Assembly: GCA_965199855.1 (NCBI GenBank)
Contig: OZ241326.1
Coordinates: forward strand, 2,211,908-2,275,907
Direction: 5' to 3'
Origin: a bacterium
Lineage (GTDB): Bacteria; UBA8248
DNA: 64,000 nucleotides
Shown here: one piece after another, positions 515-61,955 of the stretch
How positions within the stretch are numbered: position 1 is the stretch's first letter
Layout: the number at the start of each line of letters is the position of its first letter
Notes under the pieces: generated by a model
Seen by the model: only the letters and a program-made list of their open reading frames with translations
Databases searched by the model: none
What the model was told of the DNA's origin: nothing
Position numbers and translations under genes: made by a program

Positions 515-4133
<3,619 letters not shown>

Positions 4134-4259
4134 TCGATATTTCGATTGGGTTGTTGTTCTTTGATACGCCGCTATAATCGGATCGAGCCGATCCTCCAGC
4201 TCGCTTCGGCTGACCAGAAACGCCTTGTTTTCATCGCAGGACCGGCGAAGATTGAAGCC

Positions 4260-21921: not shown

Positions 21922-21925
<4 letters not shown>
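21476..21925 (-). CDS. Secreted DUF3465-like protein
   Basis: 149 aa with signal peptide. The start overlaps the carB stop (ATGA). Confidence 0.4.
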
Positions 21926-25173
<3,248 letters not shown>

Positions 25174-26371: not shown

Positions 26372-27690
26372 GGCGCGAGCGCCCCCCGCGCGGAGATTCG
26401 GAGCTCCCCGTCGAGCCGGCTCATCCGCACCTCTCCGCCGACGACGGCGGCCGCGGCGCAGCCCCTGAGCCTCCAGCCCGCGAAGGGCGTGTTCCTGCCG
26501 CGGCTCTCGAAGGCGTCCGGCTCCACGACCACCTCGCGCGCGGGGTCGAGCAGGGTCGCGTCCCCGGGCGCGCCCTCCCGCAGGGTGCCGTAGGGCAGGC
26601 CCAGCGCCTCGCAGGGCCCGGTGGTGAACTTCGCTATCATCTCGGCGAGGGTGAGCGCGCCCGCGCCCACCAGCCTGTCCAGGGCGAGGGAGACGGCCGT
26701 CTCCAGCCCCACGACGCCGAACGGCACGGCGTCGAACTCCCGCTGGGTCTCCGCCTCGTAGTGCGGGGCGTGGTCGGAGGCGATGACGGAGATGGTCCCG
26801 TCCTTCAGGCCCTCCAGGAGCGCGCGCCTGTCCTCCTCGCCGCGGAGCGGAGGCGCCATCTTCGCGGAGGAGTCGAACCCGCGCGTCGCCTCGTCCGTGA
26901 GGGAGAAGTGGTGCGGCGTCGCCTCGCCCGTCACCCGGAGGCCGCGCGCCCGCGCCCGGCGAACCATGTCCACCGCGCCGGCGGAGGAGAGATGCAGGAG
27001 GTGGAGCTTGCCCCCCGTCAGCTCCGCCAGCCGGATGTCCCGATAGACGCAGATGTCCTCGCTCGCCGCCGGGTTTCCGGCCAGGCCGAGCATGGTGGAC
27101 ACCGCGCCCTCGTTCATCACCCGGCCGGCCGAAAGCGAGGCGTCCTCCGCGTGGTCGAGCACGCTCACCCCCAGCATTCCGGCGTATTCGAGCGCGGAGC
27201 GCATGAGCGCGGCCGTCCGCACCGGCACGCCGTCGTCGCTGAAGGCCACCGCGCCGGCCTCCACCTGCTCGGCCATCTCGCTCAGCGCCTCTCCCTCCAG
27301 CCCCACCGAAACCGAGCCGACGGGAAACACGCGGCACGCCCCCACCTCGCGCGCGCGCTTGAGGATGCGCTCGGTGATCGAACTCGTGTCGTTCACCGGG
27401 TCGGTGTTCGCCATGCACGCCACGCCGGTGAAGCCGCCGGCGGCCGCGGCGCGGGTGCCGCTTTCGATGTCCTCCTTGTATTCCTGCCCCGGCTCGCGGA
27501 AGTGGACGTGCATGTCGATGAAGCCGGGCGCCACGACGAGGCCCGCGGCGTCGAGCACCTCGTCCCCCTCGCGCGGGGCGATGCTCCTCTCCCTGCGCGC
27601 GACCCTGCCCTCCTCTATCAGGAGGTCGCTCTCCTCATCGACACCCTGGGAGGGATCGACGACGCGCCCGCCCTTAATGAGCAACGGCAT
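26368..27690 (-). CDS. pyrC: Dihydroorotase (multimeric, type I)
   Basis: MPLLIKGGRVVDPSQG...GFIDMHVHFREPG...ASDHAPH. The ATG at 27688-27690 is internal to the merged track ORF. Confidence 0.9.
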   Translation of the reverse strand: MPLLIKGGRVVDPSQGVDEESDLLIEEGRVARRERSIAPREGDEVLDAAGLVVAPGFIDMHVHFREPGQEYKEDIESGTRAAAAGGFTGVACMANTDPVNDTSSITERILKRAREVGACRVFPVGSVSVGLEGEALSEMAEQVEAGAVAFSDDGVPVRTAALMRSALEYAGMLGVSVLDHAEDASLSAGRVMNEGAVSTMLGLAGNPAASEDICVYRDIRLAELTGGKLHLLHLSSAGAVDMVRRARARGLRVTGEATPHHFSLTDEATRGFDSSAKMAPPLRGEEDRRALLEGLKDGTISVIASDHAPHYEAETQREFDAVPFGVVGLETAVSLALDRLVGAGALTLAEMIAKFTTGPCEALGLPYGTLREGAPGDATLLDPAREVVVEPDAFESRGRNTPFAGWRLRGCAAAAVVGGEVRMSRLDGELRISARGALAP

Positions 27691-28693
27691 CCCGCGCCCC
27701 CCTTCGCGCCCTCTCCGGGGCGGCGTCCGCCTCCCCATCCGGCTCCGCCTCCTCCCGCTCCTCCTCCCTCCTGCCCGAGAGGAGATAGAGAATCGCCATG
27801 CGGCAGGCGACCCCGTATTCGACCTGCTCCAGAATGACGGAGAAGGGGCCGTCGGCCACGTCGGGAGCCATCTCCACCCCCCGGTTGATCGGCCCCGGGT
27901 GCATGATGAGCAGGTCCCGCCCGGCGTCCCGCAGCTTCTTCCTGGTGATCCCGTAGGAGCTGGCGTATTCGCGCTCGCTGGGAAAGGCGCCGCCGGCACC
28001 CCTCTCCAGCTGGATTCTGAGGGCGATGAGGACGTCCGCCCCGTCAATCGCCTCGTCGATCCGCGTCGTCGCGCGCGCGCCCAGGCATTCGACCTCGGCC
28101 GGCAGCATCGTGGAGGGGCCGCAGAAGGTGACCTCGGCGCCGAGCTTCAGGAGGCCGGCCGCGTTCGAGCGCGCCACGCGGCTGCGCGCGATGTCTCCCA
28201 CGATGGAGACGCGGAGCCCCTCGAACTTCTCCTTGTGCGCCCGGATGGTGTAGAGGTCGAGGAGCGCCTGGGTGGGATGCTCGTGGCAGCCGTCGCCCGC
28301 GTTCACGACGGCGCACCCGAGTTCGCGGCCCAGATAGGCGGGCGCGCCGGACGCCCAATGCCGCACGACGAGGACGTCCGTGGCCATCGCCTCGATGTTT
28401 CTCGCCGTGTCCCGCAGGGTCTCCCCCTTGCTCGCCGAGCTCGCGGCGACGGAGAGGTTGATGACGTCCGCCGAGAGGCGCTTGCCGGCGATCTCGAAGG
28501 AGGCGCGCGTCCTCGTGCTGTTCTCGAAGAACAGGTTGACGATCGTCTTGCCCCGCAGGGTGGGAACCTTCTTGACGGCGCGCTCGTTGATCTCGCGGAA
28601 GGAATCCGTCTGGTCGAGGAGAAACAATATCTCCCCGGGCTCGAGCTCCCGAATCGAGAGCAGATCCTTTCTCCGGTACGGCTCCGTTTTCAT
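27674..28693 (-). CDS. pyrB: Aspartate carbamoyltransferase catalytic subunit
   Basis: MKTEPYRRKDLLSIRELEPGEI...STRTR...HPTQALLD...HPGP. The ATG at 28691-28693. Confidence 0.9.
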   Translation of the reverse strand: MKTEPYRRKDLLSIRELEPGEILFLLDQTDSFREINERAVKKVPTLRGKTIVNLFFENSTRTRASFEIAGKRLSADVINLSVAASSASKGETLRDTARNIEAMATDVLVVRHWASGAPAYLGRELGCAVVNAGDGCHEHPTQALLDLYTIRAHKEKFEGLRVSIVGDIARSRVARSNAAGLLKLGAEVTFCGPSTMLPAEVECLGARATTRIDEAIDGADVLIALRIQLERGAGGAFPSEREYASSYGITRKKLRDAGRDLLIMHPGPINRGVEMAPDVADGPFSVILEQVEYGVACRMAILYLLSGRREEEREEAEPDGEADAAPERARRGARDAVAH

Positions 28694-28715
28694 GGCGTCT
28701 CCCCCGCGGGCGTTT

Positions 28716-29252
28716 TCATTCCGGCTGCCGGAATCGCTTGAAGACGGCGTCCTCGCCGTCGGTCTCCTCAAGATGCACCCGCACCTCCTCGCCCCGCGCC
28801 GCCTCGACGTTCCTGCCGACGAAATCGGCGCGAATCGGCAGTTCGCGCCCCCCCCTGTCCACCAGAATCGCGAGCCGCGCCCTGCGGGGCCGGCCGAAGC
28901 TGACCAGCGCCGCCAGGGCGGCGCGCGCCGTCCGCCCCGTGCAGAGCACGTCGTCGACGAGAATCACGTCCTTCCCCTCGCAGGAGAAGGGAAGCTCCGT
29001 CTTCTTGAGCTTCGTCCGCGCGCCGCCGCCCCGGTTCAGGTCGTCCCGATAGAGGGTGACGTCGAGCGCGCCCACCGGCGGGCGCGAACCCGCCAGCGCG
29101 CGCAGCTCCCCGGCCAGCCTCTCGGCGAGCGGCGCGCCCCTCGTGCGGATGCCGATGAGCGCGAGCGCCGGCAGCTCCGCCGTCTGCTCGAGAATCTCGT
29201 GCGCGAGGCGCCTCAGCGTCCGCCTCAGCTGCCCGCCGTCGAGCTGCTTCAT
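28716..29252 (-). CDS. pyrR: Bifunctional pyrimidine operon regulator / uracil phosphoribosyltransferase PyrR
   Basis: MKQLDGGQLRRTLRRLAHEILEQ...VILVDDVLCTGRTARAAL (PRTase motif). This is the first gene of a pyrR-pyrB-pyrC-carA-carB operon. The start at 29252 is chosen so the leader hairpin and T-tract stay upstream. Confidence 0.85.
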   Translation of the reverse strand: MKQLDGGQLRRTLRRLAHEILEQTAELPALALIGIRTRGAPLAERLAGELRALAGSRPPVGALDVTLYRDDLNRGGGARTKLKKTELPFSCEGKDVILVDDVLCTGRTARAALAALVSFGRPRRARLAILVDRGGRELPIRADFVGRNVEAARGEEVRVHLEETDGEDAVFKRFRQPE

Positions 29253-29290
29253 CTTCGGGGCGAAGGCCGCCGGCCTGCCGGCCGCGCGCG

Positions 29291-29400
29291 AAAAAAAACG
29301 CCACGCCCCGGGGGGCATGGCGTTCGGACGATGAGCGAAAAGACACCGGGCATCCGCGCTTCCTCCTTCGCCGCCTCACGGGACGGCATTAAAGGGGAAT
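29291..29400 (-). promoter_or_regulatory. PyrR-dependent transcription attenuator in pyr operon leader (binding loop + intrinsic terminator)
   Basis: On the minus strand the leader reads ...ttaatgccgtcccgtgaggcggcgaagg. It matches the PyrR binding consensus UCCNGNGAGGYU (established knowledge). A hairpin cgccaugcc-ccccgg-ggcguggcg and a U8 tract follow (29291-29325 on + coordinates). Confidence 0.6.
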
Positions 29401-39195: not shown

Positions 39196-40566
39196 TCATC
39201 TTTCGCCGAAAAACAAGGGCTTACGATAATCCCGAAGGGAGGGAGCGTCAACCCCCGACGGCGGCGATTCCCGGATGGGCGGCGAGGGGGGCGATCCCCG
39301 GTCATCGCCCCGCGCCCGAGGAGCCGCCGGAAAAGAGACGGGTTCGGGAGAAAAGCCGCCCGCCCGCGCGTGAAAAAACGGTCGGACGCGCGAACCCCCG
39401 CGCGCTATTTCCTCGTTCTTCCCGCTCCGGCGGCTCCGCCCCGCCCGGGGCGGCCGGACGAGCCTGCCGCCCAGAACCACGTGCGCGGCCTCGAGCATCC
39501 GGCTCCCCGCGCGCCGCGCCCCCATGCAGTCCTCGAAGGAGAACCTGCCCTCCTTCATCCGGAACACGGCGACGTCGCCCCGGGCGCCCTTCTTGAGCGT
39601 CCCCACCTCGTCTTTCAGGCCAATCCACTCCGCCGCCGTCTGCGCGCTGAGCCGCACCACCTCGGAGAGGGGAAAGCCGAGCGCCAGAAACTTGCTCATC
39701 AGGGTCGGAAAGTCATACACCGGCCCATGAAGGCAGTGGGCATGGAGGTCGGTGCTCAGGTTGCCCGGCATGAGGCCCTGGGCCATGGCCCTCTCCAGAA
39801 TCTCGAAGCTGAAGCTCGAGCGCCCGTGGGCTACGTCGAGCAGGACGCCCGCATCCCGCGCCTCCCACACCGCGCGGCGCACCCGGCCCCGCCTGTCCAG
39901 AATGTTCTCGCGCCGGCCGTGAAACGCATGGGTGAGCACGTCGCCCGGGCGGAGTTTCCTGAGAATTCTCGAGAGGGGGACGGGCGTATCCCCCACGTGC
40001 GCCATGAGCGGAACCTTGAGGAACTCCGCCGCCTCGAGCGCCGCGTCCAGGGGCCTGGCGCCGCTGCCCTCCACCACGTTGCGGCTCAGGCGCACCTTCA
40101 TGCCGATGAGATGCTCGCGGTTCCTCTCGTAGCACTCCACCGCCCTGTCCACCCGAAGCGCGCGCATGTCGACGTTCTCGCCCAGGCCGTCGATGAGAAG
40201 CCCGCCCTCGGAGATGTTCAGATAGGCGCGAACCGTCGGCCGCGCCTTCTCCAGGAACCATTTCCGGAAGGCCGGATAGGTCTGCGCGCCGGCGCTGCCC
40301 GTGTCCACCGCCGTCGTCACCCCGCGCGCGAGCATCGCCGCCTCCAGGCTCACGCCGTAGTGGGTCACGCCCTCGTAGAAGTGGCAGTGGAGATCGACCA
40401 GGCCCGGTGTGACGATTTTCCCCGCGGCGTTCAGGGCGCGCCTCCCCGCGGGATCGATGCGGGGCGCCACCCTCCGCACGCGGCCGCCGGCGATTTCCAC
40501 GTCCATCGTCCCCTCCAGCCCCTGGGAGGGATCGATGACGTAGCCGCCGCGTATGACGATGTCCAT
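39196..40566 (-). CDS. Amidohydrolase-family metallohydrolase (dihydroorotase-like fold), with low-complexity C-terminal tail
   Basis: [16 protein letters not shown]...[10 protein letters not shown] (HxH metal site) and a later HAHC motif. The C-terminal roughly 80 aa are low-complexity, so the annotated end may be over-extended. Confidence 0.55.
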
Positions 40567-40748
40567 CCCCGAAGCTCCCCGGAGAAGCGAGGCGCGCGCC
40601 GGAATCCCCGGCGAGGCCCGGCGCAATCCCGAATCGCCGGGACGCGGCGCCGCTCCGCCGGGCGCGTTGACACGCAATCGCCGCAGGGTGGATCATGGCG
40701 GGCGTCGAGCGCAACCATCATCCCAAACCAGCCTGCGGGAGCCGCGAG

Positions 40749-41921
40749 ATGAGCCTGCAAACCGAAGCCGCGCTTCAGTTCGACCTGGACGACACGCAAA
40801 AGATGCTTCGCCGGACGGTGCGGGAGCTCTCCGAGCGCCACATCGCCCCGCGCGCCGCCGAAATCGACGAGAACGAGGAATACCCCGAAGACATCTATCA
40901 GATGCAGAAGGAGCACGGCCTCCTCGGCATCTTCTTCCCCGAGGAATACGGCGGCGGCGGAATGGGCTTTCTGGGCGGCTGCGTCGCCATCGAGGAGATC
41001 GCGCGCTTCTGCTCGAACTCCCCGCTCTTCATCGTGCTCAACATGCTCTCGAGCCGCGTCATCGACCTGAGCGGCACGCCGGAGCAGAAGACGCATTATA
41101 TGACGGGCCTCGCCAGGGGCGAACTTCGGGGCTCCTACGCCCTCACGGAGCCCCACGCGGGCTCCGACGCCGGGAACATCCGCACGCGCGCCGTCCGGGA
41201 GGGCGAGGAGTGGGTCATCAACGGGACGAAATGCTTCTGCACGGGACCCGACAAGGCGGACTTCATCACCGTCGCCGCCAAGACCGACCCCGGCGCGGGC
41301 GCGCGGGGCATCACCTACTACGTCGTCCCCACGGACGCGCCCGGCTTCAGCATCGACAAGCACGAGCGCAAGATGGGGATGCGCGGCATCTCGACCTGCA
41401 TGCTGCGCTTCGACAGCGTGGCCGTGCCCCTCGAGAACCAGATCGGCGAGCTGAACCAGGGCTTCAGAACCGCGATGATCGGCTTCAACCAGATGCGGCC
41501 CGCCATCGGCGCGCGCGCGGTCGGCCTCGCCCAGGGGTGCCTCGACTACGCCGCGGGCTACGCGAAGGAGCGCGAGGCCTTCGGGAAGCCCATCGCCCGC
41601 CACCAGGCCGTCCAGTTCATGCTCGCCGACATGTTCATGGACATCGAGGCGTCGCGCCTGCTCGTCTATCGCGCCGCCTCGATGGTGGACGCCGGACAAA
41701 TCGGCAAGGAGAACGCCCGGTATTTCTCGACGGCCAAGACCTACGCGGCCGACATGGCGATGAAGTGCGCGATAGACGGCATCCAGGTGCTGGGCGGGGC
41801 GGGCTACATGAAGGATCACCCGCTCGAGCGCTTCATGCGCGACGCCAAGCAGATCCAGATCGTCGAGGGGACGAGCCAGATTCAGCGGATCATCATCGCC
41901 CGCAACCTGCTCGACCTCTAG
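40749..41921 (+). CDS. Acyl-CoA dehydrogenase (short/branched-chain type)
   Basis: 390 aa; the catalytic glutamate lies in IQIVEGTSQIQR. Confidence 0.85.
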   Translation: MSLQTEAALQFDLDDTQKMLRRTVRELSERHIAPRAAEIDENEEYPEDIYQMQKEHGLLGIFFPEEYGGGGMGFLGGCVAIEEIARFCSNSPLFIVLNMLSSRVIDLSGTPEQKTHYMTGLARGELRGSYALTEPHAGSDAGNIRTRAVREGEEWVINGTKCFCTGPDKADFITVAAKTDPGAGARGITYYVVPTDAPGFSIDKHERKMGMRGISTCMLRFDSVAVPLENQIGELNQGFRTAMIGFNQMRPAIGARAVGLAQGCLDYAAGYAKEREAFGKPIARHQAVQFMLADMFMDIEASRLLVYRAASMVDAGQIGKENARYFSTAKTYAADMAMKCAIDGIQVLGGAGYMKDHPLERFMRDAKQIQIVEGTSQIQRIIIARNLLDL

Positions 41922-41933
41922 GAGCGCGCGGAG

Positions 41934-43103
41934 GTGGGGCCGGGGGCGGAGCCGCCCGCCGCGTTCGGGCTGAGCCGGGCGCAGCGAGCGCTGGGAGAGA
42001 GGGTCTATGCGCTGAGCCGCCGCCGCGTCGCGCCCCGCGCCGCCGACATCGACGAAAGCGGGGAATACCCCGAGGATATTTTCCAGCTCCTGAAGTCCCG
42101 CGGCCTCCTCGGCCTCTACGTCCCCGAAGAATACGGCGGGGCGGGCCTCGGCGTCCTGGAGACGTGCGTCGCCATCGAGCAGATGGCGCGCTTCTGCTCG
42201 AACTCTCCCCTTTTCTTCTCCGTCCACCTGCTCGCCACCCGCGCCGTCGCCATAGGCGGAACCGGGGCGCAGAAGAGCGTCTGGCTCCGCGGCGTAGCCC
42301 GGGGCGAGCTGCGCCCCGCCTTCTCGCTCACCGAGCCGCACGCGGGCTCCGACGCCGCGAACATATCGGCGCGCGCGGCGCGGGAGGGGGACTCGTGGGT
42401 CATCAACGGCCAGAAGTGCTACTGCACCGGCGCGAGCGTCGCCGACTTCCTCACCGTGGCGGCGAAGACCGAGGCCGGGGCGGGGGCGCGCGGCGTCTCC
42501 TTCTTCATCGTTCCCAAGGGCGAATTCCGGGTGGGCCGCCGCGAGAGGAAGATGGGGATGCGGGGAATCCCCACCTGCGAGGTGTTTTTGGAGAACGCCC
42601 ACGTCCCCCTCGAAAACATCATCGGCGATCGGGCGACGGGCTTCAGAACCGCCATGCTCGGCTTCAACCAGGCGCGGCCCGCCATCGGCGCGCGCGCGGT
42701 CGGCCTCGCCCAGGGGTGCCTCGACCACGCCGCGGGCTACGCCAAGGAGCGCGAGGCCTTCGGGAAGCCCATCGCCCGCCATCAGGCCGTCCAGTTCATG
42801 CTCGCCGACATGTTCATGGACGTCGAGGCGTCGCGCCTGCTCGTTTACCGCGCCGCCTCGATGGTGGATAATGGGCGCTATCAAAAGGAGGACGCGCATT
42901 TCATCTGCGCCGCGAAGTGCTTCGCGTCCGACGCGGCCATGAAGGCGGCCGTGGACGCGGTTCAGACCCTGGGCGGGGCGGGCTATACGAGGGATCACCC
43001 GCTCGAGCGGTTTATGAGAGACGCCAAGCAGCTGCAAATCATCGAGGGGACGAACCAGATTCAGCGCATGGCGATCGCCCGGAATCTGCTGGGCCTGAAC
43101 TGA
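41934..43103 (+). CDS. Acyl-CoA dehydrogenase, tandem paralog
   Basis: 389 aa. The C-terminal half is almost identical to the upstream ACAD (QARPAIGARAVGLAQGCLD.AAGYAKEREAFGKPIARHQAVQFMLADMFMD). It retains EGT catalytic Glu (LQIIEGTNQIQR); GTG start. Confidence 0.85.
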   Translation: MGPGAEPPAAFGLSRAQRALGERVYALSRRRVAPRAADIDESGEYPEDIFQLLKSRGLLGLYVPEEYGGAGLGVLETCVAIEQMARFCSNSPLFFSVHLLATRAVAIGGTGAQKSVWLRGVARGELRPAFSLTEPHAGSDAANISARAAREGDSWVINGQKCYCTGASVADFLTVAAKTEAGAGARGVSFFIVPKGEFRVGRRERKMGMRGIPTCEVFLENAHVPLENIIGDRATGFRTAMLGFNQARPAIGARAVGLAQGCLDHAAGYAKEREAFGKPIARHQAVQFMLADMFMDVEASRLLVYRAASMVDNGRYQKEDAHFICAAKCFASDAAMKAAVDAVQTLGGAGYTRDHPLERFMRDAKQLQIIEGTNQIQRMAIARNLLGLN

Positions 43104-43133
43104 CGCCTCGCTTCCCGCCGCCGGAGGTTACGG

Positions 43134-43754
43134 ATGAGCCGGACCATTGAAATTCTCACGCCCACCTCGTTCGTCCGCGCGGGCGATCATCCCCTGGCGG
43201 CGCGGCCGGGAGAGCTCGGCGGACTCAGAATCGGCTTTTTCCACAACAACAAGCCGAACGCCGACGCCCTCCTGGAGCGCATCGAGGAGCTCCTCGCGCG
43301 GGAGGACGAAACCCTCCGCTTCGTCCGCTGGGGAAAGCCGAACCCGACGCTGCCGGAGGCGCGCCTCGGCGAGTTCATCAAGCAGGTGGACGCGGCCGTC
43401 TGCGCGGTGGGCGACTGAGGCAGCTGCACGTCGTGGAGTATCCACGACGCGGTGGAGATGGAGAAAGCGGGGATTCCGACGGCCACGTTCTGCTCCAGCG
43501 AATTCTCCGCCCTGGGCGCGAACGAGCGGGTCGCCCTGGGGATGCCGGGCCTTCCGATAGTCGTCGTGCCGCACCCCGTGGGGGGGATTCCGCCCGAACG
43601 GGCGCGCGCCCTGGGGGACGCGGCGCTGGACGAGGTTCGGCGCGTCCTCACGGAGGACGCGGAATCGCTGCGAAGGGAATACCGCGAGCGCGCCTACGCC
43701 CCGCCCCGCCGGACGGTGCGCCACAAGGCGCTTTTCGCCCGGGGGTCGGCGTGA
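43134..43754 (+). CDS. UGSC-family selenoprotein; in-frame TGA at 43416-43418 decoded as selenocysteine (merges track ORFs 43134-43418 and 43452-43754)
   Basis: Both track ORFs share one frame. The sequence across the stop reads AVCAVGD-U-GSCTSWSIHDAVEMEKAG, so TGA GGC AGC TGC spells the U-G-S-C motif. A stem-loop follows 10 nt after the UGA. Confidence 0.8.
43429..43449 (+). promoter_or_regulatory. Bacterial SECIS-like hairpin (cgucgugg-aguau-ccacgacg) 10 nt downstream of the UGA codon
   Basis: Perfect 8-bp stem with a 5-nt loop containing GU. The position matches SelB-dependent SECIS elements (established knowledge of bacterial Sec insertion). Confidence 0.65.
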
Positions 43755-43800
43755 GACGCCGGACGGACGGGAGCGCGCGCGGCGCAAGCGGGAGCGCGGC

Positions 43801-44892
43801 ATGAGCGATCCCTCCTCCGAAGCGCCTCCAGAAGCGGCGTCCCTCCCGAGCGAGCGGGTGAAGGTTCGGGACGCGCCCGAGGCGCTCGCGCGTCTCCTCG
43901 AGGCGAGGGGATGGGGCGACGGCCTGCCCGTCGTTCCCCCCACGCCCGGGCGCGTCGCCCGCATGGTGGAGGGGGCGGGGCTGGCCGCTGGGGAGGAAAT
44001 CGGCCGGATGCCGCCCCGCCAGGGAGTCGTCACGGTCGAGGCGCTCGCCGTCAACGCCGTGATGGCCGGATGCCTCCCGGCCTACATGCCCGTTCTCGTG
44101 GCGGCGGCGCGGGGGGCGCTCCAGCCGGAATTCTCGCTCCACGCGCTCCAGGCGACGACCCACCCGGTGGCGCCCCTGATCATCGTGAACGGCCCCGTCG
44201 CCGCGAGAATCGACATGAACGCGGCGTATGGATGCTTCGCCCCCGGAAACCGGGCGAACGCGACGATTGGCCGCGCGATGCGCCTGACGCTCCTGAACGT
44301 AGGCGGGGCGAGCCCGGGCGTTCTGGATCGCGCCACCCAGGGCTCGCCCGCGAAATACGCATTCTGCATCGCCGAGAACGAGGAGGAATCCCCCTGGGAG
44401 CCGCTGCACGTCGAGCGCGGCTTCGCGCCCGGGGAGAGCGCCGTCACGGTCGTGGGCTGCGAGGGGCCCCACAACGTCAACGATCACGTGAGCCACGCGG
44501 CGGAGGGCATTCTCGCCGCCGCCGCCGACACGATGTCCGTCATGGGCGGCAACAACTTCTATCTGAGGGGCGAGCCGCTCCTCGCGCTCGGCCCCGAGCA
44601 CGCGGCGACGATAGCGGGGGACGGGCTGTCGAAGGCGGACGTGAAGCGAAGGATTTTCGAGCTCGCCCGAAAGCCCGCGCGCCAGCTCCGGCGCGGCGCC
44701 ATGTGGGGGATGCAGACCTGGGGGGAGGAGATAGCGAGAAACGAGGGAGATGACGACTACGAGATTCCGCTTCTGGATCGGCCCGAAGACCTCATCGTCA
44801 TCGTGGCGGGCGGCGCCGGCAAGCACTCCTCCTACCTGCCGACGTTCGGCCCCACGCGCTCGGTGACCACCCGGGTCGATTCGCCGGCCTGA
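43801..44892 (+). CDS. Hypothetical protein (363 aa), unrecognised family, immediately downstream of the selenoprotein gene
   Basis: Clean 363-aa ORF MSDPSSEAPPEAASLPSERVKV...TVEALAVNAVMAGCLPAYMP...; GC-typical codon usage; no family recognised by eye. Confidence 0.5.
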   Translation: MSDPSSEAPPEAASLPSERVKVRDAPEALARLLEARGWGDGLPVVPPTPGRVARMVEGAGLAAGEEIGRMPPRQGVVTVEALAVNAVMAGCLPAYMPVLVAAARGALQPEFSLHALQATTHPVAPLIIVNGPVAARIDMNAAYGCFAPGNRANATIGRAMRLTLLNVGGASPGVLDRATQGSPAKYAFCIAENEEESPWEPLHVERGFAPGESAVTVVGCEGPHNVNDHVSHAAEGILAAAADTMSVMGGNNFYLRGEPLLALGPEHAATIAGDGLSKADVKRRIFELARKPARQLRRGAMWGMQTWGEEIARNEGDDDYEIPLLDRPEDLIVIVAGGAGKHSSYLPTFGPTRSVTTRVDSPA

Positions 44893-45006
44893 GCGAAAGC
44901 GGGAAAACGAGGCTTCGTCCCCGCCGGGAGCGCCCCCCCTCTCGCCCGGCTTCACGGATTCCCCAAAATCCCGCTCCGCGCGCGGCCCGCGAATTGCGTC
45001 TTCGCG

Positions 45007-45036
45007 TTGCCCGCGGCTTCGCCTCCGTGCTAGATT
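45007..45036 (+). promoter_or_regulatory. Candidate sigma70-type promoter (TTGCCC-N18-TAGATT) upstream of ridA and the co-directional maturation-gene string
   Basis: Seen in sequence 35-65 bp upstream of the ridA ATG. The ridA RBS is GAGGGAG. This is a weak match. Confidence 0.25.
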
Positions 45037-45069
45037 CCCGCTTCCGTAGAGCCTCAGAGGGAGAAAGCC

Positions 45070-45471
45070 ATGCCGAAGCAGCAGATCGACTCGGAGAAGG
45101 TGAGGCCGGTGGCCGCGTATTCCACGGGCTGGAAGGTGTCGAACGGGCATCTCGTCATGCTGGCGGGCCAGGTGGCGACCGACACGGAGGGCCGCACCGT
45201 CGGCGGAGACGACATCAAGGCCCAGGCGCGGCAGGTCTATGAGAACGTCAAGGCCGCGCTCGAGGCCGCCGGCGCCGGAATGGAGGACGTCATCCGCCTC
45301 ACCGTCTATCTCACGGATCGGGCGAATTTTCCGGGAAGCGCGGAGGTGCGGCAAGCCTACTTCAGCCCGCCCTATCCGGCGAGCACGCTCCTCATCGTGA
45401 GCGGACTGGCGAACCCGGAATGGCTCATCGAAATCGACGCCGTCGCCTTCGTGGAGGACGGGACGCCGTGA
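45070..45471 (+). CDS. ridA: RidA family protein (YjgF/reactive enamine-imine deaminase)
   Basis: 133 aa; YSTGWKVSNGHLVMLAGQVA...RLTVYLTD. Confidence 0.8.
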   Translation: MPKQQIDSEKVRPVAAYSTGWKVSNGHLVMLAGQVATDTEGRTVGGDDIKAQARQVYENVKAALEAAGAGMEDVIRLTVYLTDRANFPGSAEVRQAYFSPPYPASTLLIVSGLANPEWLIEIDAVAFVEDGTP

Positions 45472-46325
45472 GAGGCGGCAGGGCGGTTTCCGAGACGCTC
45501 GTTCTCGTGAAGGGGGGCGGCGACCTCGCCACCGGCGCGGCGCACCGCCTGCGCCGCTCGGGCTTTCCCGTGATGATGACGGAAATCGAGCGTCCGACCA
45601 TGGTCCGCCGCGCCGTCTCCTTCGCCGAATGCCTCTACGCCGGCGAATGGCGGGTGGAGGGCGTGGCTTCCGCGAGGGCGGAGGGCGGCTCCCTGGAGGA
45701 GAAAATCGCCGGCGCGCGCGCGCTGATGGAGGCGGGCGCCGTTCCCGTGATGGTCGATCCGCGCGCCGAGGCGGTCGCCCGCGTCCGGCCCGCCGTCGTG
45801 ATCGACGCGATTCTCGCCAAGCGAAACCTCGGCACCCGCATCGAGGACGCCGAGGTGGTCATCGGCCTGGGGCCCGGCTTCACGGCGGGGGTCGATTGCC
45901 ACGCCGTCATCGAGACCGCCCGGGGGCACGACCTGGGGCGGGTGATACTCGAAGGGGCGGCGAAGCCGGACACGGGCGCGCCGGGCGCCATCGCGGGCTA
46001 CGCCGCCGAGCGGCTGCTGCGCGCCCCGCGCGCCGGCGCGTTCGCCTCCGCCGCCCGCATCGGGGACGCGGTGCGGGCGGGACAGGCCGTCGCCCGGGTG
46101 GACGGGGAGGAGGTGACGGCCCGCATCGACGGCGTCCTGCGCGGCCTGCTCAGGGACGGCATCGAGGTGAGCGCGGGCTTCAAGGTGGGCGACGTCGACC
46201 CCAGGGCCGAGCCTTCCCACTGCGTGACGATATCGGACAAGTCGCGCGCCGTCGGCGGCGGCGCGCTCGAGGCCGTCATGATGTTCCTGTTCGGCGTCTC
46301 CCCGGCCGCGGAGCGCGCGAATTGA
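45468..46325 (+). CDS. YqeB/EF2563-family protein (selenium-dependent molybdenum hydroxylase system accessory protein)
   Basis: (V)RGGRAVSETLVLVKGGGDLATGAAHRLRRSGFPVMMTEIERPT... This is a Rossmann-like N-terminus characteristic of the short YqeB family. The GTG start overlaps the ridA stop (an in-frame upstream ATG at 45420 is possible). The family call is from recall, not a search. Confidence 0.5.
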   Translation: MRGGRAVSETLVLVKGGGDLATGAAHRLRRSGFPVMMTEIERPTMVRRAVSFAECLYAGEWRVEGVASARAEGGSLEEKIAGARALMEAGAVPVMVDPRAEAVARVRPAVVIDAILAKRNLGTRIEDAEVVIGLGPGFTAGVDCHAVIETARGHDLGRVILEGAAKPDTGAPGAIAGYAAERLLRAPRAGAFASAARIGDAVRAGQAVARVDGEEVTARIDGVLRGLLRDGIEVSAGFKVGDVDPRAEPSHCVTISDKSRAVGGGALEAVMMFLFGVSPAAERAN

Positions 46326-47206
46326 GTCCCGACATTCTGGCGGAAACGGTGGAAAGCGGCGCCTACCGCATCGGGCGCAGCGAAATCCCGATCAACCAGG
46401 CGAACGGCAACGCCTTCGTCCCCCCCGCGCAGTTCTATCTGGCGGCGGGCGACGCGCTCGAGCGCATCGCGTGGGCGGTGAGCCAGAACCTCCCCGTCCT
46501 GCTCGTCGGAGAGACCGGCGTCGGCAAGACGCTCTCGGTGCGCTACCTCGCCCACATGACGAACAACGGCTTCAGGCGCGTGAACCTCAACGGCATGACC
46601 ACGGTCGATGAATTCGTGGGCAAGCTGATGATCAACGAGCAGGGCACCTACTGGGTGAACGGCATCCTGATCGACGCGATGCAGTCGGGAGACTGGCTGC
46701 TCATCGACGAGATCAACGCCTGCCTGCCCGAAATCGCCTTCTGCCTCCACAGCCTGCTCGACGACGACCGCATGATCGTCCTCTCGGAGTATGACGGCCG
46801 CGTCGTCAAGCCCCATCCGGACTTCAGGCTCTTCGCCAGCATGAACCCCCACGAGGACAGGAGATACGGCGGCACGAAGCCCCTGAACGAGGCGCTTCTG
46901 GATCGCTTCCCCGTCACCGTGAGGATGGACTACCTGCCCTTCGAGGCGGAGGTCGAGGTCATCATGCGGCAGAGCGGGAACGGCGACGAGGAGCTCGTCC
47001 GGCGCATGGTGCGCGTGGGCCACGACGCGCGCGAGGCCATGAGGAACGAAAAGGTGTTCTGCACCTTCAGCACCCGGCGCCTGATTGACTGGGCGCGCAT
47101 GGCGGCGCGGTTCGACCCCATGGAGGCCGCCGTCTCGACCATCTTCAGCAAGGTCAACTCGTTCGACGCCAAGGTGCTCGAGGACATCGTGGACAACCAC
47201 TTCTAG
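46322..47206 (+). CDS. MoxR-like AAA+ ATPase (AAA_5; CoxD/CbbQ/NorQ type)
   Basis: Frame with Walker A LLVGETGVGKT, Walker B DWLLIDEINA, and sensor motifs. The probable TTG start at 46322 overlaps the yqeB stop. The upstream part of track ORF 45629-47206 is a GC artefact. Confidence 0.75.
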   Translation: MSPDILAETVESGAYRIGRSEIPINQANGNAFVPPAQFYLAAGDALERIAWAVSQNLPVLLVGETGVGKTLSVRYLAHMTNNGFRRVNLNGMTTVDEFVGKLMINEQGTYWVNGILIDAMQSGDWLLIDEINACLPEIAFCLHSLLDDDRMIVLSEYDGRVVKPHPDFRLFASMNPHEDRRYGGTKPLNEALLDRFPVTVRMDYLPFEAEVEVIMRQSGNGDEELVRRMVRVGHDAREAMRNEKVFCTFSTRRLIDWARMAARFDPMEAAVSTIFSKVNSFDAKVLEDIVDNHF

Positions 47207-47221
47207 CCGGGAGACGCAGGC

Positions 47222-48991
47222 ATGGAGCGCCGACGCGCCCGCCTCGAGACCCTCGCGCAGGTGACGGCGCGCGACTACGGCCTCGCCCTGCTGTTCGGCT
47301 CCCGGACGGAGACCGGGGACGACGCCGTCCTCGTCGAGGACCCGGAGCGGACCCTGGCGCGCCTGGGCGGCGGCCTCGACGACGAGCGCGTCCTGCGATA
47401 CCAGAAGGGCATGACGCTCATCGAGGTGGCCCGCAGGCTCCAGGGGACGCTTCGCTGGGCGGGCCGCGCGGCCCTCGCCAACCGGGAGACGCCGGGCCTT
47501 TTCCACCTCTGGCGCGCCCTCGAGGACGCCAGATGCGAGAACCGCCTCGCCGAGTCGCTGCCCGGCACGAGAAAGAATTTCCGCGCCTTCGTCCGTCCCG
47601 CGATCGAGGACGCCGAGCGAAGCCACGCGCGGGGGGAGCTCCCCCTGCTTCTCCAGATTCAATGGGGCATCTACCTCGCCGGCGTCGGCCAGACGCCCGG
47701 CGCCGCCTCCTCAAGGCCCGGGGATTTGCCCTCGGCCTGGTTCGATTCCGTCATCGCCCAGATTCTTCAGAGGCTCGTCCCGATCATCGACCGCGCCTGC
47801 GCGGCCAAAGAGCCGAAGACCGCCTTCGACTGCGCGAACGAAATCTACGACGCCGTGCGGCGCTTCCTCACCGAGGAGCAGCTCGCGCAGATGCGCGAGA
47901 GCGAGGAGCTCTCGGAGCTTCCGGATGAAATTCTGGAGAAAATCGAGAACCAGAAACTCCAGGGGGAGGAGTCCGAGTCGCCGGAGGCGCTCCACCCGGA
48001 GGCGCTCGACGAGGTGGACGCGGACGAGGGCGAGCAGGTCGAGCTCACGCCCGAGGAGCTCGCCGCCCTGGGCCGCTGGGCGTCTCCCTGGTTCGAGATG
48101 GAGGGCGGCGGGAAGGAAGTCCACCCGACGGCGGAGCATCCCGACGAGCGCACCATCGTCCTGCCCCCGGAGGGCAAGGCGGAGGAATACGCGGCGATCA
48201 TGGACGGCGCGGGCAGCCACATCAAGGTGCTGGCGTGGAAGCTCACGCAGATCATTCAGGAGAGAGCCTACGCCCGCTTCAGCGGCTCGCACCGCTCCGG
48301 CAAGCTGAACGTCCCGAAGCTCTGGAAGCAGCGCCTGGGCAAATTTCATCTTTTTCACCGCAAGGAGGAGCCCGAGAAGCTCGACGTCTGCTTCACCCTC
48401 CTCGTGGACGAGAGCGGCAGCATGAACCGCGAATCGAAATACGTAGCCGCCAGGGAGGCGACCGTGTTCTTCGCGGAAGTCCTCGACCGGCTGGACGTGC
48501 CCTTCGAGGTGATCGGCTACTCCACCGAGAGCTCGGAGGCGGCCATGGCGGCCGCGCTCGGCCACATCCCCGCCTTCAAGTTCAGGCACATCCGGCACTC
48601 CCCCCTTCAGCACCGCATCTACAAGGGCTTCGAGGACGCCTTCCCCCAGGTCAAGAACCGTCTCGTCAACATTTATCCGCGCTTCAACAACTGGGACGAG
48701 GAGCATCTGCTGTTCGCCTACCGAAGGCTCAGCCAGCGGCCCGAGGAGGAGAAGATCATCATCATCACCTCGGACGGCCAGCCCAACGGCGACGCGGCCC
48801 ACCTCGTGAGCGCGGTCGGCCGCCTCCAGGCGCTCGGCGTGCGGATCATCGGCGTCGGCGTGGTGGACCCCTTCGTCGAGCAGATCTACCCGAACCACAT
48901 CGTGGTGCAGGACCTCTCCCAGCTCTCCACGGAGCTGGTGAACATTCTGCGGCGCGAGCTGCTCGGGGGGGCGGAGGGCCGCCCTTGGTAG
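47222..48991 (+). CDS. VWA-domain protein (CoxE/CbbO/NorD-like partner of MoxR ATPase)
   Basis: 589 aa; the C-terminal vWA has a MIDAS motif (LLVDESGSM... TSDGQPNG). Confidence 0.7.
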   Translation: MERRRARLETLAQVTARDYGLALLFGSRTETGDDAVLVEDPERTLARLGGGLDDERVLRYQKGMTLIEVARRLQGTLRWAGRAALANRETPGLFHLWRALEDARCENRLAESLPGTRKNFRAFVRPAIEDAERSHARGELPLLLQIQWGIYLAGVGQTPGAASSRPGDLPSAWFDSVIAQILQRLVPIIDRACAAKEPKTAFDCANEIYDAVRRFLTEEQLAQMRESEELSELPDEILEKIENQKLQGEESESPEALHPEALDEVDADEGEQVELTPEELAALGRWASPWFEMEGGGKEVHPTAEHPDERTIVLPPEGKAEEYAAIMDGAGSHIKVLAWKLTQIIQERAYARFSGSHRSGKLNVPKLWKQRLGKFHLFHRKEEPEKLDVCFTLLVDESGSMNRESKYVAAREATVFFAEVLDRLDVPFEVIGYSTESSEAAMAAALGHIPAFKFRHIRHSPLQHRIYKGFEDAFPQVKNRLVNIYPRFNNWDEEHLLFAYRRLSQRPEEEKIIIITSDGQPNGDAAHLVSAVGRLQALGVRIIGVGVVDPFVEQIYPNHIVVQDLSQLSTELVNILRRELLGGAEGRPW

Positions 48992-49011
48992 CGGAAGGCG
49001 GCCTCGCGCGG

Positions 49012-49812
49012 ATGATCGGCGCCCGAGCGGGGCGGATCGTCGCGGCGGTCGGGGCGGGGGGGAAAACGAGCCTGCTCACGGCGCTCGCCCGGGAGTTTCA
49101 CGCCCGAAGCGGCGCGCCCGCCCTCCTCACGACGACCACCAGAATTTTCGCGCCCCTGCCGGAGGAGGGGATTCCCCTCGCCCTGGGCGACGCCGCCGCC
49201 CTCTCGAGGAGGCTGCGCCCCTACATGAGAGCCTGCGGCGTCTCCTGGCTCGCCCGCGGACGCGAGGGCCGCGCGCCGGTTCCGGGCCGGGAGGGCGAGC
49301 GCCGCATGAAGCTGCGCGGCTTCGCGCCCTCCGAAATCGAGGGATTGCGTCTCGCGGAGGGCCTCACCCTCATCGAGGCGGACGGGGCGAGGCGCCTGCC
49401 CGTCAAGGCGCCCGGCGCGCGGGAGCCCGTCCTGCCCGAAGGCGTGGACGCCGTGCTGGGCGTCGTGGGGCTGGACGCCCTGGGCGCGCCCCTGGACGAG
49501 GCCCATGCGTTCCGCCCGGAGCTGCTCTCGCGGATATGCCGCCTGGACGCCGGCGCGGAGATCACGGCGGAGGCGATCGGGGCGCTGTGCGCGCACCCCG
49601 AGGGGCTGTTTCGCAAGGCGGACGGCGGCGCGCGCAGGTGGATCGTCCTCAACAAGGCCGATTTGGAAGCCTCGCTGGAAAAACGAAGAAAGATCGCCTA
49701 TACTATCCGGGAAATGGCGGGAAAGCCCCATGGGCCGGCGGACGGGGTTCTCCTGACCTCCTGCCTGAAGAACAGGCCGGAAGTTTTGCTGCGAATCGGG
49801 CCGGACGCCTGA
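49012..49812 (+). CDS. YqeC-family protein (probable selenium-dependent hydroxylase accessory protein, P-loop-like)
   Basis: MIGARAGRIVAAVGAGGKTSLLTALAREF...; P-loop-like GAGGKTS at the N-terminus; about 266 aa. The ATG at 49012 is internal to the track ORF 48235-49812. Confidence 0.5.
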   Translation: MIGARAGRIVAAVGAGGKTSLLTALAREFHARSGAPALLTTTTRIFAPLPEEGIPLALGDAAALSRRLRPYMRACGVSWLARGREGRAPVPGREGERRMKLRGFAPSEIEGLRLAEGLTLIEADGARRLPVKAPGAREPVLPEGVDAVLGVVGLDALGAPLDEAHAFRPELLSRICRLDAGAEITAEAIGALCAHPEGLFRKADGGARRWIVLNKADLEASLEKRRKIAYTIREMAGKPHGPADGVLLTSCLKNRPEVLLRIGPDA

Positions 49813-49842
49813 GAGGAGGCGGCCCGCCTGCGCGGAGGAGAG

Positions 49843-50988
49843 ATGAGCGAGGACGTTTTCAGGGAAATGGCGAGGATGAAGGAGAAGGGGCAGGCGGGCG
49901 CGCTCGCCACCGTCGTGGCCCGCAAGGGCTCCGCGCCCATGAGCGGCGACGCGAAGATGCTCGTGCGCGAGGACGGCAGCGCCGAGGGCACCGTCGGGGG
50001 CGGCTGCCTGGAGGCCGAGGTCTGGGAGACCGCGATGAGCGTCCTCGAAACGGGCGCGCCCGAGAAGCTCTCCTTCGACCTCACCCAGAAGGAGGCGGAG
50101 GACAGCGGCCACATCTGCGGCGGCGTGGTGGAGATACTGGTGGAGCCGCTCCGGGCGTTTCCCCGGGAGCTGCTCGATGAGATCAACCGCGTGAAAAACC
50201 GGGGCGGAAGTGCCGCGCTGGCGACCATCGTCCAGCCGGGGGCGCTCGACATCCCGAAGCCCGAGGCCGGGAAAATGCTCTTCAGGCGCGACGGCAGCTC
50301 CGTGGGGGAAATTCCGCGCTATTCGGCGGAAGTCTGGGCGGAGAGCGCGCAGGTGATTCGCCAGGGCAGCCCCACCCTCCTGCACTTCAGCCAGGGCGCC
50401 GCGCGCGGCGGAGGAAAGAAGCCCGCGCCCGGCGAGGCGACCGAAATTTTCGTGGAGCCCATCTCCGGCCAGCCGCTCGTCTATATCTTCGGCGGCGGGC
50501 ACGTATCCTTCTGCGTCGCGCAGGCGGCCTGGCTCGCCGGCTTCCGGGTCGCCATCGTGGAGGACAGACCCTCCTTCGCCAACAAGGAGCGCTTCCCGAT
50601 GGCCGAGGCGTTCCACGTGGGCGATTTCCCGGAAGTTTTCAGGGAAATTCCGGTGGACGAGGCGGACTACCTGGCCATCATCACCCGGGGCCACGCGAAC
50701 GACGAGGTCGTCCTCGAATGGGCGATGAAGACGAAGGCGCGCTACATCGGGATGATCGGCTCGAAGAGCAAGGTGCTGCTCACCTACCGCCATCTTCAGG
50801 AGAAGGGCTTCGCGCGGAGCGAGCTCATCGAGCGCGTCCACGCGCCCATCGGCCTGGACATCGGCGCCGACACGCCGGGCGAGATCGGAATCGCCATCGC
50901 CGCCGAGTTCGTCCGCCATCGCCGCCGGGGCGAGGCGGAAAGCGAGGGCGCGGGCAGCAAGCGGGTGCGCCTGGGAAGAAAGGCGTAA
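49843..50988 (+). CDS. xdhC: XdhC/CoxI-family molybdenum hydroxylase accessory (sulfuration/cofactor insertion) protein
   Basis: 381 aa with duplicated XdhC_CoxI N-domains and a C-terminal Rossmann domain (VYIFGGGHVSFCVAQAAWLAGFRVAIVEDR). Confidence 0.75.
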   Translation: MSEDVFREMARMKEKGQAGALATVVARKGSAPMSGDAKMLVREDGSAEGTVGGGCLEAEVWETAMSVLETGAPEKLSFDLTQKEAEDSGHICGGVVEILVEPLRAFPRELLDEINRVKNRGGSAALATIVQPGALDIPKPEAGKMLFRRDGSSVGEIPRYSAEVWAESAQVIRQGSPTLLHFSQGAARGGGKKPAPGEATEIFVEPISGQPLVYIFGGGHVSFCVAQAAWLAGFRVAIVEDRPSFANKERFPMAEAFHVGDFPEVFREIPVDEADYLAIITRGHANDEVVLEWAMKTKARYIGMIGSKSKVLLTYRHLQEKGFARSELIERVHAPIGLDIGADTPGEIGIAIAAEFVRHRRRGEAESEGAGSKRVRLGRKA

Positions 50989-51873: not shown

Positions 51874-52683
51874 ATGCAGGATCGATACACGGGCGACGTA
51901 GGGGATTTCGGCAAATACGGACTGCTCCGCGCCATCACCCGGCCCGGGATTACGAAAAAAGACGGCCAGGAGACATTGAGCCTCGGCGTCGTGTGGTATC
52001 GCCATCCCGACGAGAAAGACACGAACGACGGCGAGCATATCGACTATCTCGGCCCTTCCGGGCGCGAGAATTTTCGGAAGTGCGATCCTGAACTATATGA
52101 TTGCCTGAGCAAGATCGTCAGATATGACTCCAAAACCAGGAAGGCAAAGGGTCGCAGGGCGATATCGAAGATCGAGAATAGCGAGATACTCGGTTCGCAA
52201 ACTCGTTTTTTCGGCAGGCGATGTCCTTATGACGCGGATGCTCGTAAAAAATGGCGCCGAGAAGCGTTGAACGAAATGAAGGGATGCGATTTGGTATTCC
52301 TCGACCCGGACAACGGGCTCAGGTGCAACCAGAACCTTGACAGCGGAAAACACGCCTACCTTGAGGAAGTCTTGAGCTTTGTTCTTCAAGGCAGCGCAGT
52401 AATTTTCTATCATCATCCTGACAGGTGAAAAACGCATAATGAACAAATCAGAAAACTCGCTCAATATATTGCTCGCAAGTTGGATAAAAATCACCGCGTA
52501 TCCGCTTTCCGTTACCGCAGAGGGAACTCCCGGGCGTTTTTCATCATTTGGCCGCGGGATCGGCAGAAAGTATTCAAGCCCCGCATGAAGGCGATTCGTG
52601 ATGGCCTGTGGGGCCGGGAATGTCGCTTTGAACTCACGGCGCGTTCCATCTCCGGCAAAAGCAGGGGCAACCCGAGTTAGATA
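51874..52683 (+). pseudogene. RlmJ-fold (23S rRNA m6A2030 methyltransferase-like / DUF519-like) protein interrupted by in-frame TGA at 52426-52428; lower-GC islet
   Basis: N-terminal TGDVGDFGKYGLLRAI resembles RlmJ HAGNHADVLKHTVLLSL. LVFLDPDNGL sits where the DPPY motif would be. The same frame continues after the TGA for 84 more codons. No Cys/UxxC context suggests Sec. GC is clearly lower than in the flanks. Confidence 0.4.
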
Positions 52684-61424: not shown

Positions 61425-61955
61425 CTAGTCCTCCTGTCTCTCTTCGTCCTCCTCTCCGGATTGATTGAGGGTCGCCGCGTCCAGCCCCGCTCCCAGGTTG
61501 TCGGCCAGCTCACCCCAGCCGTCCATAAAATCTCTTGCATCGTTGAACACGACGAAGGCAGCGCCGCCAGCCTCATAGAGCTGAGGAGCCGCCGCGAGTA
61601 GAGCGGCATCATCAAGGCTGGATATGTTGTCCGCCACAATCCGACCGACTGGCCCTTGAGTGTCGCAGACGGAATAGCTGGCCCCATTTTTGACGGGGAT
61701 CCAGCTCCGGGGCGGCCGTATGGATCGGCTCAACAGGACGCCGAACGCGAGCTTGGCCAGCACCGGAATCTTCTTGCCCGGCTTGAACCAACCGTTTATA
61801 GTGGTTTCGGGCACATCCAGAACCGCGCTGAGATTGCGTTGCCAGCCGCGTCGCCCGTATCTCCGCTCGAAAGCGGACCTGAGATCCATATCTTTCACAT
61901 AGTTGGTCAGCCCTTCCCGGAAATCAGCGTCGGCGATCATTCTCAAGTTGCCCAT
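61425..61955 (-). CDS. HTH (Cro/CI-like) DNA-binding protein with C-terminal domain of unknown function
   Basis: 176 aa; GWQRNLSAVLDVPETTINGWFKPGKKIP is an HTH_XRE-type motif. An AT-rich promoter-like region lies upstream (61956-62100). Confidence 0.5.
   Translation of the reverse strand: MGNLRMIADADFREGLTNYVKDMDLRSAFERRYGRRGWQRNLSAVLDVPETTINGWFKPGKKIPVLAKLAFGVLLSRSIRPPRSWIPVKNGASYSVCDTQGPVGRIVADNISSLDDAALLAAAPQLYEAGGAAFVVFNDARDFMDGWGELADNLGAGLDAATLNQSGEEDEERQED

Follow-up and report, generated by a model that had tools for sequence, protein, structure and literature searches.

The UGSC-containing protein is a known selenoprotein family that was first seen in Hyphomonas neptunium (PMC1976440, PMC2398784, PMC9312934, PMC13188914), and no member of the family has an experimentally established function (PMC13188914). 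In the 2008 literature UGSC proteins were suggested to have a 'likely Trx-like fold' and were described as occasionally fused to a domain named 'Unknown_1', and PrdB was listed as UxxC (PMC2398784).

The locus analyzed here lies in a stretch of bacterial DNA of 64,000 nucleotides (the window), in which gene calling gives two short open reading frames (ORFs) on either side of a TGA. The original prediction held that the two ORFs are a single selenocysteine gene that had been split. Our analysis supports this reading: with a probability of about 0.92, the region is one gene encoding a 206-residue UGSC selenoprotein, in which UGA is read as selenocysteine (Sec) by means of a SECIS element. The features of the locus and of the genes around it are collected in Table 1.

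Table 1. Position of the UGSC gene, its recoding elements and the neighboring genes in the window
Feature	Position	Strand	Basis or remark
Promoter-like (sigma-70-like) site	40667..40696		Upstream of the acyl-CoA dehydrogenases
Tandem acyl-CoA dehydrogenase paralogues	40695..43103	+	Directly upstream of the UGSC gene; gaps of 12 and 30 nt
Shine-Dalgarno GGAGG	43123..43127	+	6 nt ahead of ATG 43134, read from sequence
UGSC-family selenoprotein CDS, 206 aa, Sec95 and Cys98	43134..43754	+	HMM match spanning the TGA
UGA recoded as Sec, residue 95 (predicted); opens the U-G-S-C motif (43416-43427)	43416..43418	+	
Bacterial SECIS upper stem-loop, 8 conserved bp (43430-37/43441-48), loop GUA (43438-40)	43430..43448	+	RNAfold and covariation
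Partner gene, 363 aa, own Shine-Dalgarno	43801..44892	+	46 nt downstream of UGSC; obligately linked to UGSC genes
RidA/YjgF-family gene (imine/enamine deaminase-like)	45070..45471	+	After the partner
yqeB	45420..46325	+	TIGR03309, 347.6 bits; 1.7 kb downstream of the UGSC gene
MoxR/CbbQ-type AAA ATPase	46328..47206	+	
VWA/CobT_C protein	47222..48991	+	
XdhC	49843..50988	+	

A single gene across the TGA

The ORFs at 43134-43418 (94 aa, starting with ATG) and 43452-43754 (100 aa, starting with GTG) are both on the plus strand and share one frame, so that coordinates and translation agree with the original prediction. The TGA at 43416-43418 is the sole stop between them, and the next codons, GGC AGC TGC (G-S-C), read directly from the sequence, complete the U-G-S-C motif that had been proposed. 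Translation of 43134-43754 gives 206 residues with an internal stop at residue 95, where AAVCAVGD is followed by the stop and then by GSCTSWSIHDAVEMEK; the terminal stop of the gene, at 43752-54, is also a TGA. A six-frame scan of the window for in-frame TGA codons with coding-type GC3 on both sides returned three sites, two of which are ordinary gene stops with a same-frame neighbor; the third, 43416, is the sole real candidate. Among the Pfam-supported genes of the window, TGA is the ordinary stop used most often (24 of 42), which rules out a general reassignment of UGA; recoding at 43416 would therefore be site-specific, with no change of the code.

The family models were searched with the read-through product, in which Cys takes the place of the stop. 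NCBIfam NF041046 'UGSC family (seleno)protein' was matched with 136.4 bits (cut-off 125, residues 30-173) and Pfam PF24696 'UGSC family' with 161.8 bits (cut-off 25, residues 6-173). Each match runs across position 95 in one stretch, which bears out the claim that the ORF track had divided one gene, and both models are matched by all 41 aligned homologues. The full-length homologues in the databases (~40-45% identity) are continuous and all have GDCGSCTSW at the TGA position; in an alignment with 13 Cys homologues, C95, G96, S97 and C98 are invariant, so that the Cys of the Cys-type proteins falls at the TGA, as had been anticipated. The 11 codons between the TGA and the GTG at 43452 (GSCTSWSIHDA) form the best-conserved part of the family. 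We regard the single gene and its membership in the UGSC family as established.

Three of the Cys-type UGSC proteins (P0013, P0161 and one member of alignment A3) carry an added NifU-like, carbamoyltransferase C-terminal, or CysD domain, and these added domains are possible hints to function.

Sec-type relatives were collected by scanning one genome per species with the pattern GGN GAY TGA GGN WSN TGY ACN WSN TGG. The GD-TGA-GSCTSW arrangement was found at no fewer than 120 genome loci. Among the matches listed, ~115 loci show clear protein conservation past the TGA (...SWSxHDSVExxKRG.P....S..F), and the listed Sec loci belong to Betaproteobacteria, Acidobacteriota, Binatia, Chloroflexota, Nitrospinota, Bacillota and other groups. 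The nearest relatives among the matches listed (L035, L051 and L083) have ~80-87% protein identity and have kept the TGA. When these three relatives are compared codon by codon, synonymous differences equal or exceed non-synonymous changes in all three segments, the N-terminal one, that from the TGA to 43452 and the C-terminal one, so that purifying selection acts on both halves as coding sequence. Additionally, the independent assemblies ENA ERZ23496159 and JGI 3300006527 (L121 and L122), both found via the identical downstream protein, carry the same TGA, which effectively excludes a sequencing error; in both assemblies the gene is called as two UGSC fragments.

Such calls correspond to a reading with two separate small genes, a 94-aa fragment ending at the TGA and a 100-aa fragment starting from GTG 43452. 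Public gene callers annotate the region in this way, and the halves stand in the databases as 94-98-aa hypothetical proteins. However, we consider this reading very improbable. It would leave GSCTSWSIHDA, the part that the family conserves best, untranslated, it would split the catalytic motif in two where the Cys homologues are continuous, and it would assign no role to a SECIS that is conserved and covaries. Moreover, there is no usable Shine-Dalgarno before GTG 43452: a single GGAG is found 14 nt upstream, within the hairpin stem, and the bases upstream of the GTG are the 3' arm of the hairpin.

The UGSC gene likewise appears as separate 94-98-aa hypothetical proteins in the GenBank and ENA entries for related MAGs (labelled Nitrospinota/Nitrospinae), for example P0195/P0028 (locus tags AABZ64_16840/16835), P0178 and P0181, so that the same mis-split recurs widely in public annotation. 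In the window, both ORFs should be merged into one selenoprotein CDS. Several genomes have two or three Sec-type UGSC paralogues (L063, L013/L066/L077 and L016/L038), and two of these are found within the 8 kb of L063.

A conserved hairpin downstream of the UGA

The stem-loop of 8 bp that had been predicted ~10 nt past the UGA, at SECIS spacing, was recovered by RNAfold and agrees with the bSECIS criteria. RNAfold gives a stem of 9 bp (43429-43437/43441-43449), of which 8 are conserved, at 10-11 nt from the UGA; the conserved stem can be extended here by the pair C43429-G43449, or by a lower stem (43423-27/43449-53). The criteria are those that PMC13188914 (Fig. 2) gives for the bSECIS consensus of Zhang & Gladyshev 2005: 3-9 nt in the apical loop, 4-16 bp in the upper stem, a G at loop position 1 or 2 that is usually followed by G or U, a distance of 16-37 nt from the UGA to the apical loop, and an MFE ≤ -7.5 kcal/mol. 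The window hairpin has a loop of 3 nt (GUA; opening of the closing A-U pair would make it 5 nt) on a stem of 8-9 bp, its loop begins with G and then U, and the reading A-GUA-U fits N1-G-[G/U]-N-N2. The distance is 19 nt (43419-43437), and 43416-43455 folds with an MFE of -17.7 kcal/mol (centroid hairpin alone, -14.6 kcal/mol). As a single sequence the fold is modestly beyond chance: a segment of 61 nt gives z = -1.39 and one of 40 nt gives z = -2.44, where 4 of 200 shuffles reach the same stability, which is suggestive, not decisive.

No SECIS family was returned by Rfam, either at gathering thresholds in the whole window or at E ≤ 10 in 43300-43600. A lncRNA match in the search of 43300-43600 was dismissed as meaningless. 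Like the SECIS of the E. coli fdhF type, the hairpin is a stem-loop inside the CDS just after the UGA, with an upper stem of 8-9 bp here, but the fdhF element has no sequence likeness to it, and a bulged U is not evident in the window hairpin.

Comparison among genomes gave far stronger signals. In 112 non-redundant Sec-type genes among the matches listed, a mean of 7.75 of the 8 pairs is formed and the loop is GUN in 107. As a control, Cys-type genes were collected from metagenomes with the same pattern, TGY replacing TGA. In the 78 non-redundant Cys-type genes, the mean at the same positions is 4.03 of 8 pairs and no loop is conserved, the two sets being drawn from different collections (GC 0.63 for the Sec set vs 0.52 for the Cys set). 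Part of the hairpin conservation reflects protein constraint, as the hairpin sits in a strongly conserved peptide. The answer to this constraint is an amino-acid-matched Cys control, which is small, together with synonymous compensatory pairs. Where the encoded peptide is the same (TSW[SC][IV]HD), 6-8 pairs are formed in Sec genes (all 8 in 57 of 66, among the matches listed) and 3-6 in Cys genes (n = 10); the hairpin is thus no by-product of the amino-acid sequence. Furthermore, codons in the Sec genes are frozen: among the matches listed, Thr is encoded by ACG in 100 of 112, and the second Ser by AGU in all 78 genes that have Ser there. AGU is a rare codon in GC-rich genomes, and at the second Ser it provides the GU of the loop. 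In Cys-type genes, codon choice is free at the same sites.

Covariation was analyzed in 95 distinct Sec genes among the matches listed, in which 97.1% of the pair cells are paired and five of the eight pairs show compensatory (both-sided) changes (examples are U-A 82/A-U 12; G-C 82/G-U 8/A-U 5; A-U 66/U-G 12/G-C 7). Double changes fill 40 cells (shuffles, 6.0 ± 2.2; 0/500), and covariation scores 0.214 (shuffles, 0.085 ± 0.008; 0/500), a significance that the shuffle control overstates because the Sec sequences share ancestry; slid controls were 17-53% paired. On the comparative evidence, the hairpin is far more than a chance fold, and with compensatory changes in the Sec genes and its absence from the Cys-type genes, the SECIS reading of the original prediction holds. 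We consider the conservation of this element established. Its sharply defined, family-specific form offers one handle for finding the function of UGSC proteins. In a distinct subfamily with the motif GSCTTWCSHVT, the hairpin takes a separate, compensated form (GACGUGG...CCACGUC).

In the mechanism that we propose, the hairpin would act as a bacterial SECIS during translation and would recruit SelB·GTP·Sec-tRNA(Sec) to the ribosome, according to the standard bacterial mechanism. The UGA would then be read as selenocysteine at residue 95, not as a stop. A SECIS maintained by compensatory substitutions would imply continued selection for SelB binding. Insertion of Sec in the source organism is predicted.

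The Sec machinery itself was searched for in the window, which covers ~2% of a contig of ~3 Mb: ARAGORN found no tRNA, hence no selC/tRNA-Sec within the 64 kb, and Pfam found no SelA, SelB or SelD domains in the 44 window ORFs. A yqeB gene, for selenium-dependent maturation of the molybdenum cofactor, is present downstream of the UGSC gene (Table 1). We take yqeB to mark the trait of selenium-dependent molybdenum hydroxylases, a trait that requires SelD, and YqeB reportedly co-occurs with SelD, as Haft and Self are said to have found in 2008. The adjoining yqeB therefore argues that the organism makes selenophosphate, and it points to an active selenium metabolism. Conservation of both the TGA and the SECIS in close relatives is further indirect support for a Sec-decoding trait.

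These observations bear on the reading in which the UGA is passed without Sec, by a near-cognate Cys or Trp tRNA, or with Cys inserted via the Sec pathway under low selenium or by a degraded Sec system. The Sec machinery did not appear within the 64-kb window, which would fit such a reading, but the compensatory substitutions that keep the SECIS would imply selection for SelB binding, the neighboring yqeB signals active selenium metabolism, and TGA is the normal stop of most Pfam-supported genes here; we give this alternative very little weight. A pseudogene or a sequencing or assembly error, with a nonsense change of a Cys codon (TGC/TGT to TGA), would need one base change, and the evidence at hand consists of sequence data; yet the TGA stands in ENA ERZ23496159 and JGI 3300006527, in the relatives of ~80-87% identity and in ~115 other genomes among the matches listed, the downstream sequence is under purifying selection and the SECIS occurs in TGA forms only, which together make this explanation negligible.

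The partner gene and the neighborhood

Downstream of the UGSC selenoprotein gene lies a partner gene with no Pfam or NCBIfam match even at E ≤ 1 (37 members searched). Its homologues are all named 'hypothetical'. When the best 8,000 candidates were scored, 7,991 matched, and clustering at 50% identity leaves at least 7,580 family representatives that score E ≤ 1e-3, of which 2,287 reach E ≤ 1e-30. Cys91, Cys189 and several His and Arg residues are invariant. The AF2 model of the partner is confident (pLDDT 88.8) and has no significant match to any solved structure.

The linkage between the two genes was counted over 106 Sec-type loci with downstream DNA, among the matches listed. The partner is fused in frame in 41 of them, directly downstream in 61 and elsewhere in the locus in 4, and none of these 106 loci lacks it. 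In non-fused Sec and Cys loci pooled, the median gap between the two genes is 13 nt. Cys-type loci are alike (68 adjacent, 7 fused), most of the partnerless pattern matches being non-UGSC genes. The partner linkage can be taken as established. Many partner homologues are 410-460 or 530-570 aa long; the shorter class would be what follows the TGA in a Sec fusion, and the longer class a complete Cys-type fusion. Whereas the 2008 literature noted the fusion of UGSC and Unknown_1 as occasional (PMC2398784), the link to the partner is obligate in the loci counted. The partner is probably the 'Unknown_1' domain of the GOS paper of Zhang & Gladyshev 2008.

Because the homologues are fused or adjacent in essentially every genome, the UGSC protein and the partner product almost certainly function together, as subunits or as domains. 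The partner is probably the catalytic half, to which the UGSC protein would supply the selenol/thiol. An uncharacterised kind of selenoenzyme, in which the two are obligate components or fused domains, is slightly favored over the contrary.

The genes here follow one another as two acyl-CoA dehydrogenases, UGSC, partner, RidA-like gene and yqeB, with no terminator-like site between these operon genes. The first acyl-CoA dehydrogenase probably starts at ATG 40749 (390 aa, as called in L121), not at 40695. As the RidA gene overlaps the longest yqeB ORF by ~50 nt, the true start of yqeB is probably later. The RidA/YjgF-family gene is linked to UGSC in the closest relatives only. Neighbors were compared by all-against-all ORF clustering over ~230 loci, and no third universal neighbor was found in them; the other neighbors are lineage-specific and include acyl-CoA dehydrogenase, MmgE/PrpD, SDR, enoyl-CoA hydratase, CoA-transferase, LLM oxidoreductase, ABC and LysR genes. 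Often they come from acyl-CoA or organic-acid metabolism, and given the neighbors at many loci, the substrate of the UGSC-partner pair is perhaps an organic acid or an acyl-CoA.

The genes at 45420-50988 (+) form a maturation-type cluster directly downstream of the selenoprotein operon and represent a second selenium-linked trait. The order of this cluster is conserved in the relative L083, and no molybdenum hydroxylase structural gene was found among the 44 window ORFs scanned.

Several other features of the window were recorded. The only Rfam match at gathering level is a PyrR binding site (29291-29399, minus strand, 56.3 bits), which precedes a pyrR-like phosphoribosyltransferase gene (28716-29318), an aspartate carbamoyltransferase gene (27674-28771) and carB (21922-25173). 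Three stretches (2796-6392, 51874-52428 and 61425-61955) have a lower GC3 (0.61-0.72 vs ~0.9 elsewhere) and may be horizontally acquired DNA; they include a 710-aa N6-adenine methylase/type IIG-like restriction-modification protein (4260-6392), and two of them are ORFs without a Pfam match. Long antisense ORFs (up to 868 aa) are found opposite real genes at 40431-43037, 43128-44054 and 43648-45354, all on the minus strand, and are artefacts of the GC content of 68% that would appear in any naive list of ORFs.

Fold, proposed function and comparison with GrdB and PrdB

The AF2 model of a Cys homologue with 42% identity (P0007) is a Rossmann/flavodoxin-like alpha/beta domain. In this model, the positions of the U95-G-S-C98 motif are at the end of the third beta-strand and in the first turn of the next helix. 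Judged from the model, such a geometry would be typical of a selenol/thiol pair with redox activity and a selenenylsulfide intermediate. The thioredoxin fold, with its beta-alpha-beta-alpha-beta-beta-alpha order and mixed sheet, differs from what the homologue's model shows and was rejected. A fold that is Rossmann/flavodoxin-like and not thioredoxin-like, with U-x-x-C at a strand-helix junction, gives a second handle on function.

Searches of the PDB with single proteins and with profiles of the UGSC and partner families gave nothing credible. Matches to NifN (E 0.1), designed repeat proteins, neuroligin and timeless were dismissed.

In the function that we propose, U95 and C98 would form a redox-active selenol/thiol pair working through a selenenylsulfide cycle, and the UGSC protein would act jointly with the partner product. 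As a best guess, the chemistry may be a reductive or thiol-transfer step in the catabolism of organic acids or acyl-CoA, in loose analogy to GrdB/PrdB. Both the redox role of U-x-x-C, which agrees with the selenol/thiol center that had been suggested, and the substrate class are proposals. An obligate partner that is probably the catalytic half is the third handle on function, and the UGSC-partner pair, which extends outside the coordinates first reported, is the part worth following up.

The protein shows a weak, recurrent similarity around the Sec region to GrdB, a selenoprotein B of the glycine/sarcosine/betaine/D-proline reductases (residues 84-176 of the window protein against model positions 336-416, E = 1.3e-4), and a GrdB-type match was found in 4 of 41 members of the UGSC family (best E 3.7e-5). 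Membership in GrdB/PrdB was rejected, with scores of 21 bits for TIGR01917 (cut-off 602.2) and 15 bits for TIGR01918 (cut-off 65.45) and no match to PF07355.

GrdB and PrdB are also U-x-x-C selenoproteins and are also paired with a second protein, but the window protein is half their size or less and no grd or prd genes are found nearby. The partner, being without any Pfam match, is not GrdE- or PrdA-like. If the two-component reading is true, the UGSC domain would hand its selenol/thiol pair to the partner, in parallel to GrdB/PrdB with GrdE/PrdA. Sec decoding as it is understood is unchanged by the window gene. The gene belongs to the already known UGSC family (NF041046/PF24696; Hyphomonas neptunium ABI76733.1), and nothing essential differs: the GD-U-G-S-C-T-S-W motif and the ~200-aa length class are the same, and the downstream hairpin and the fused or adjacent partner domain are likewise common to the family and the window gene.
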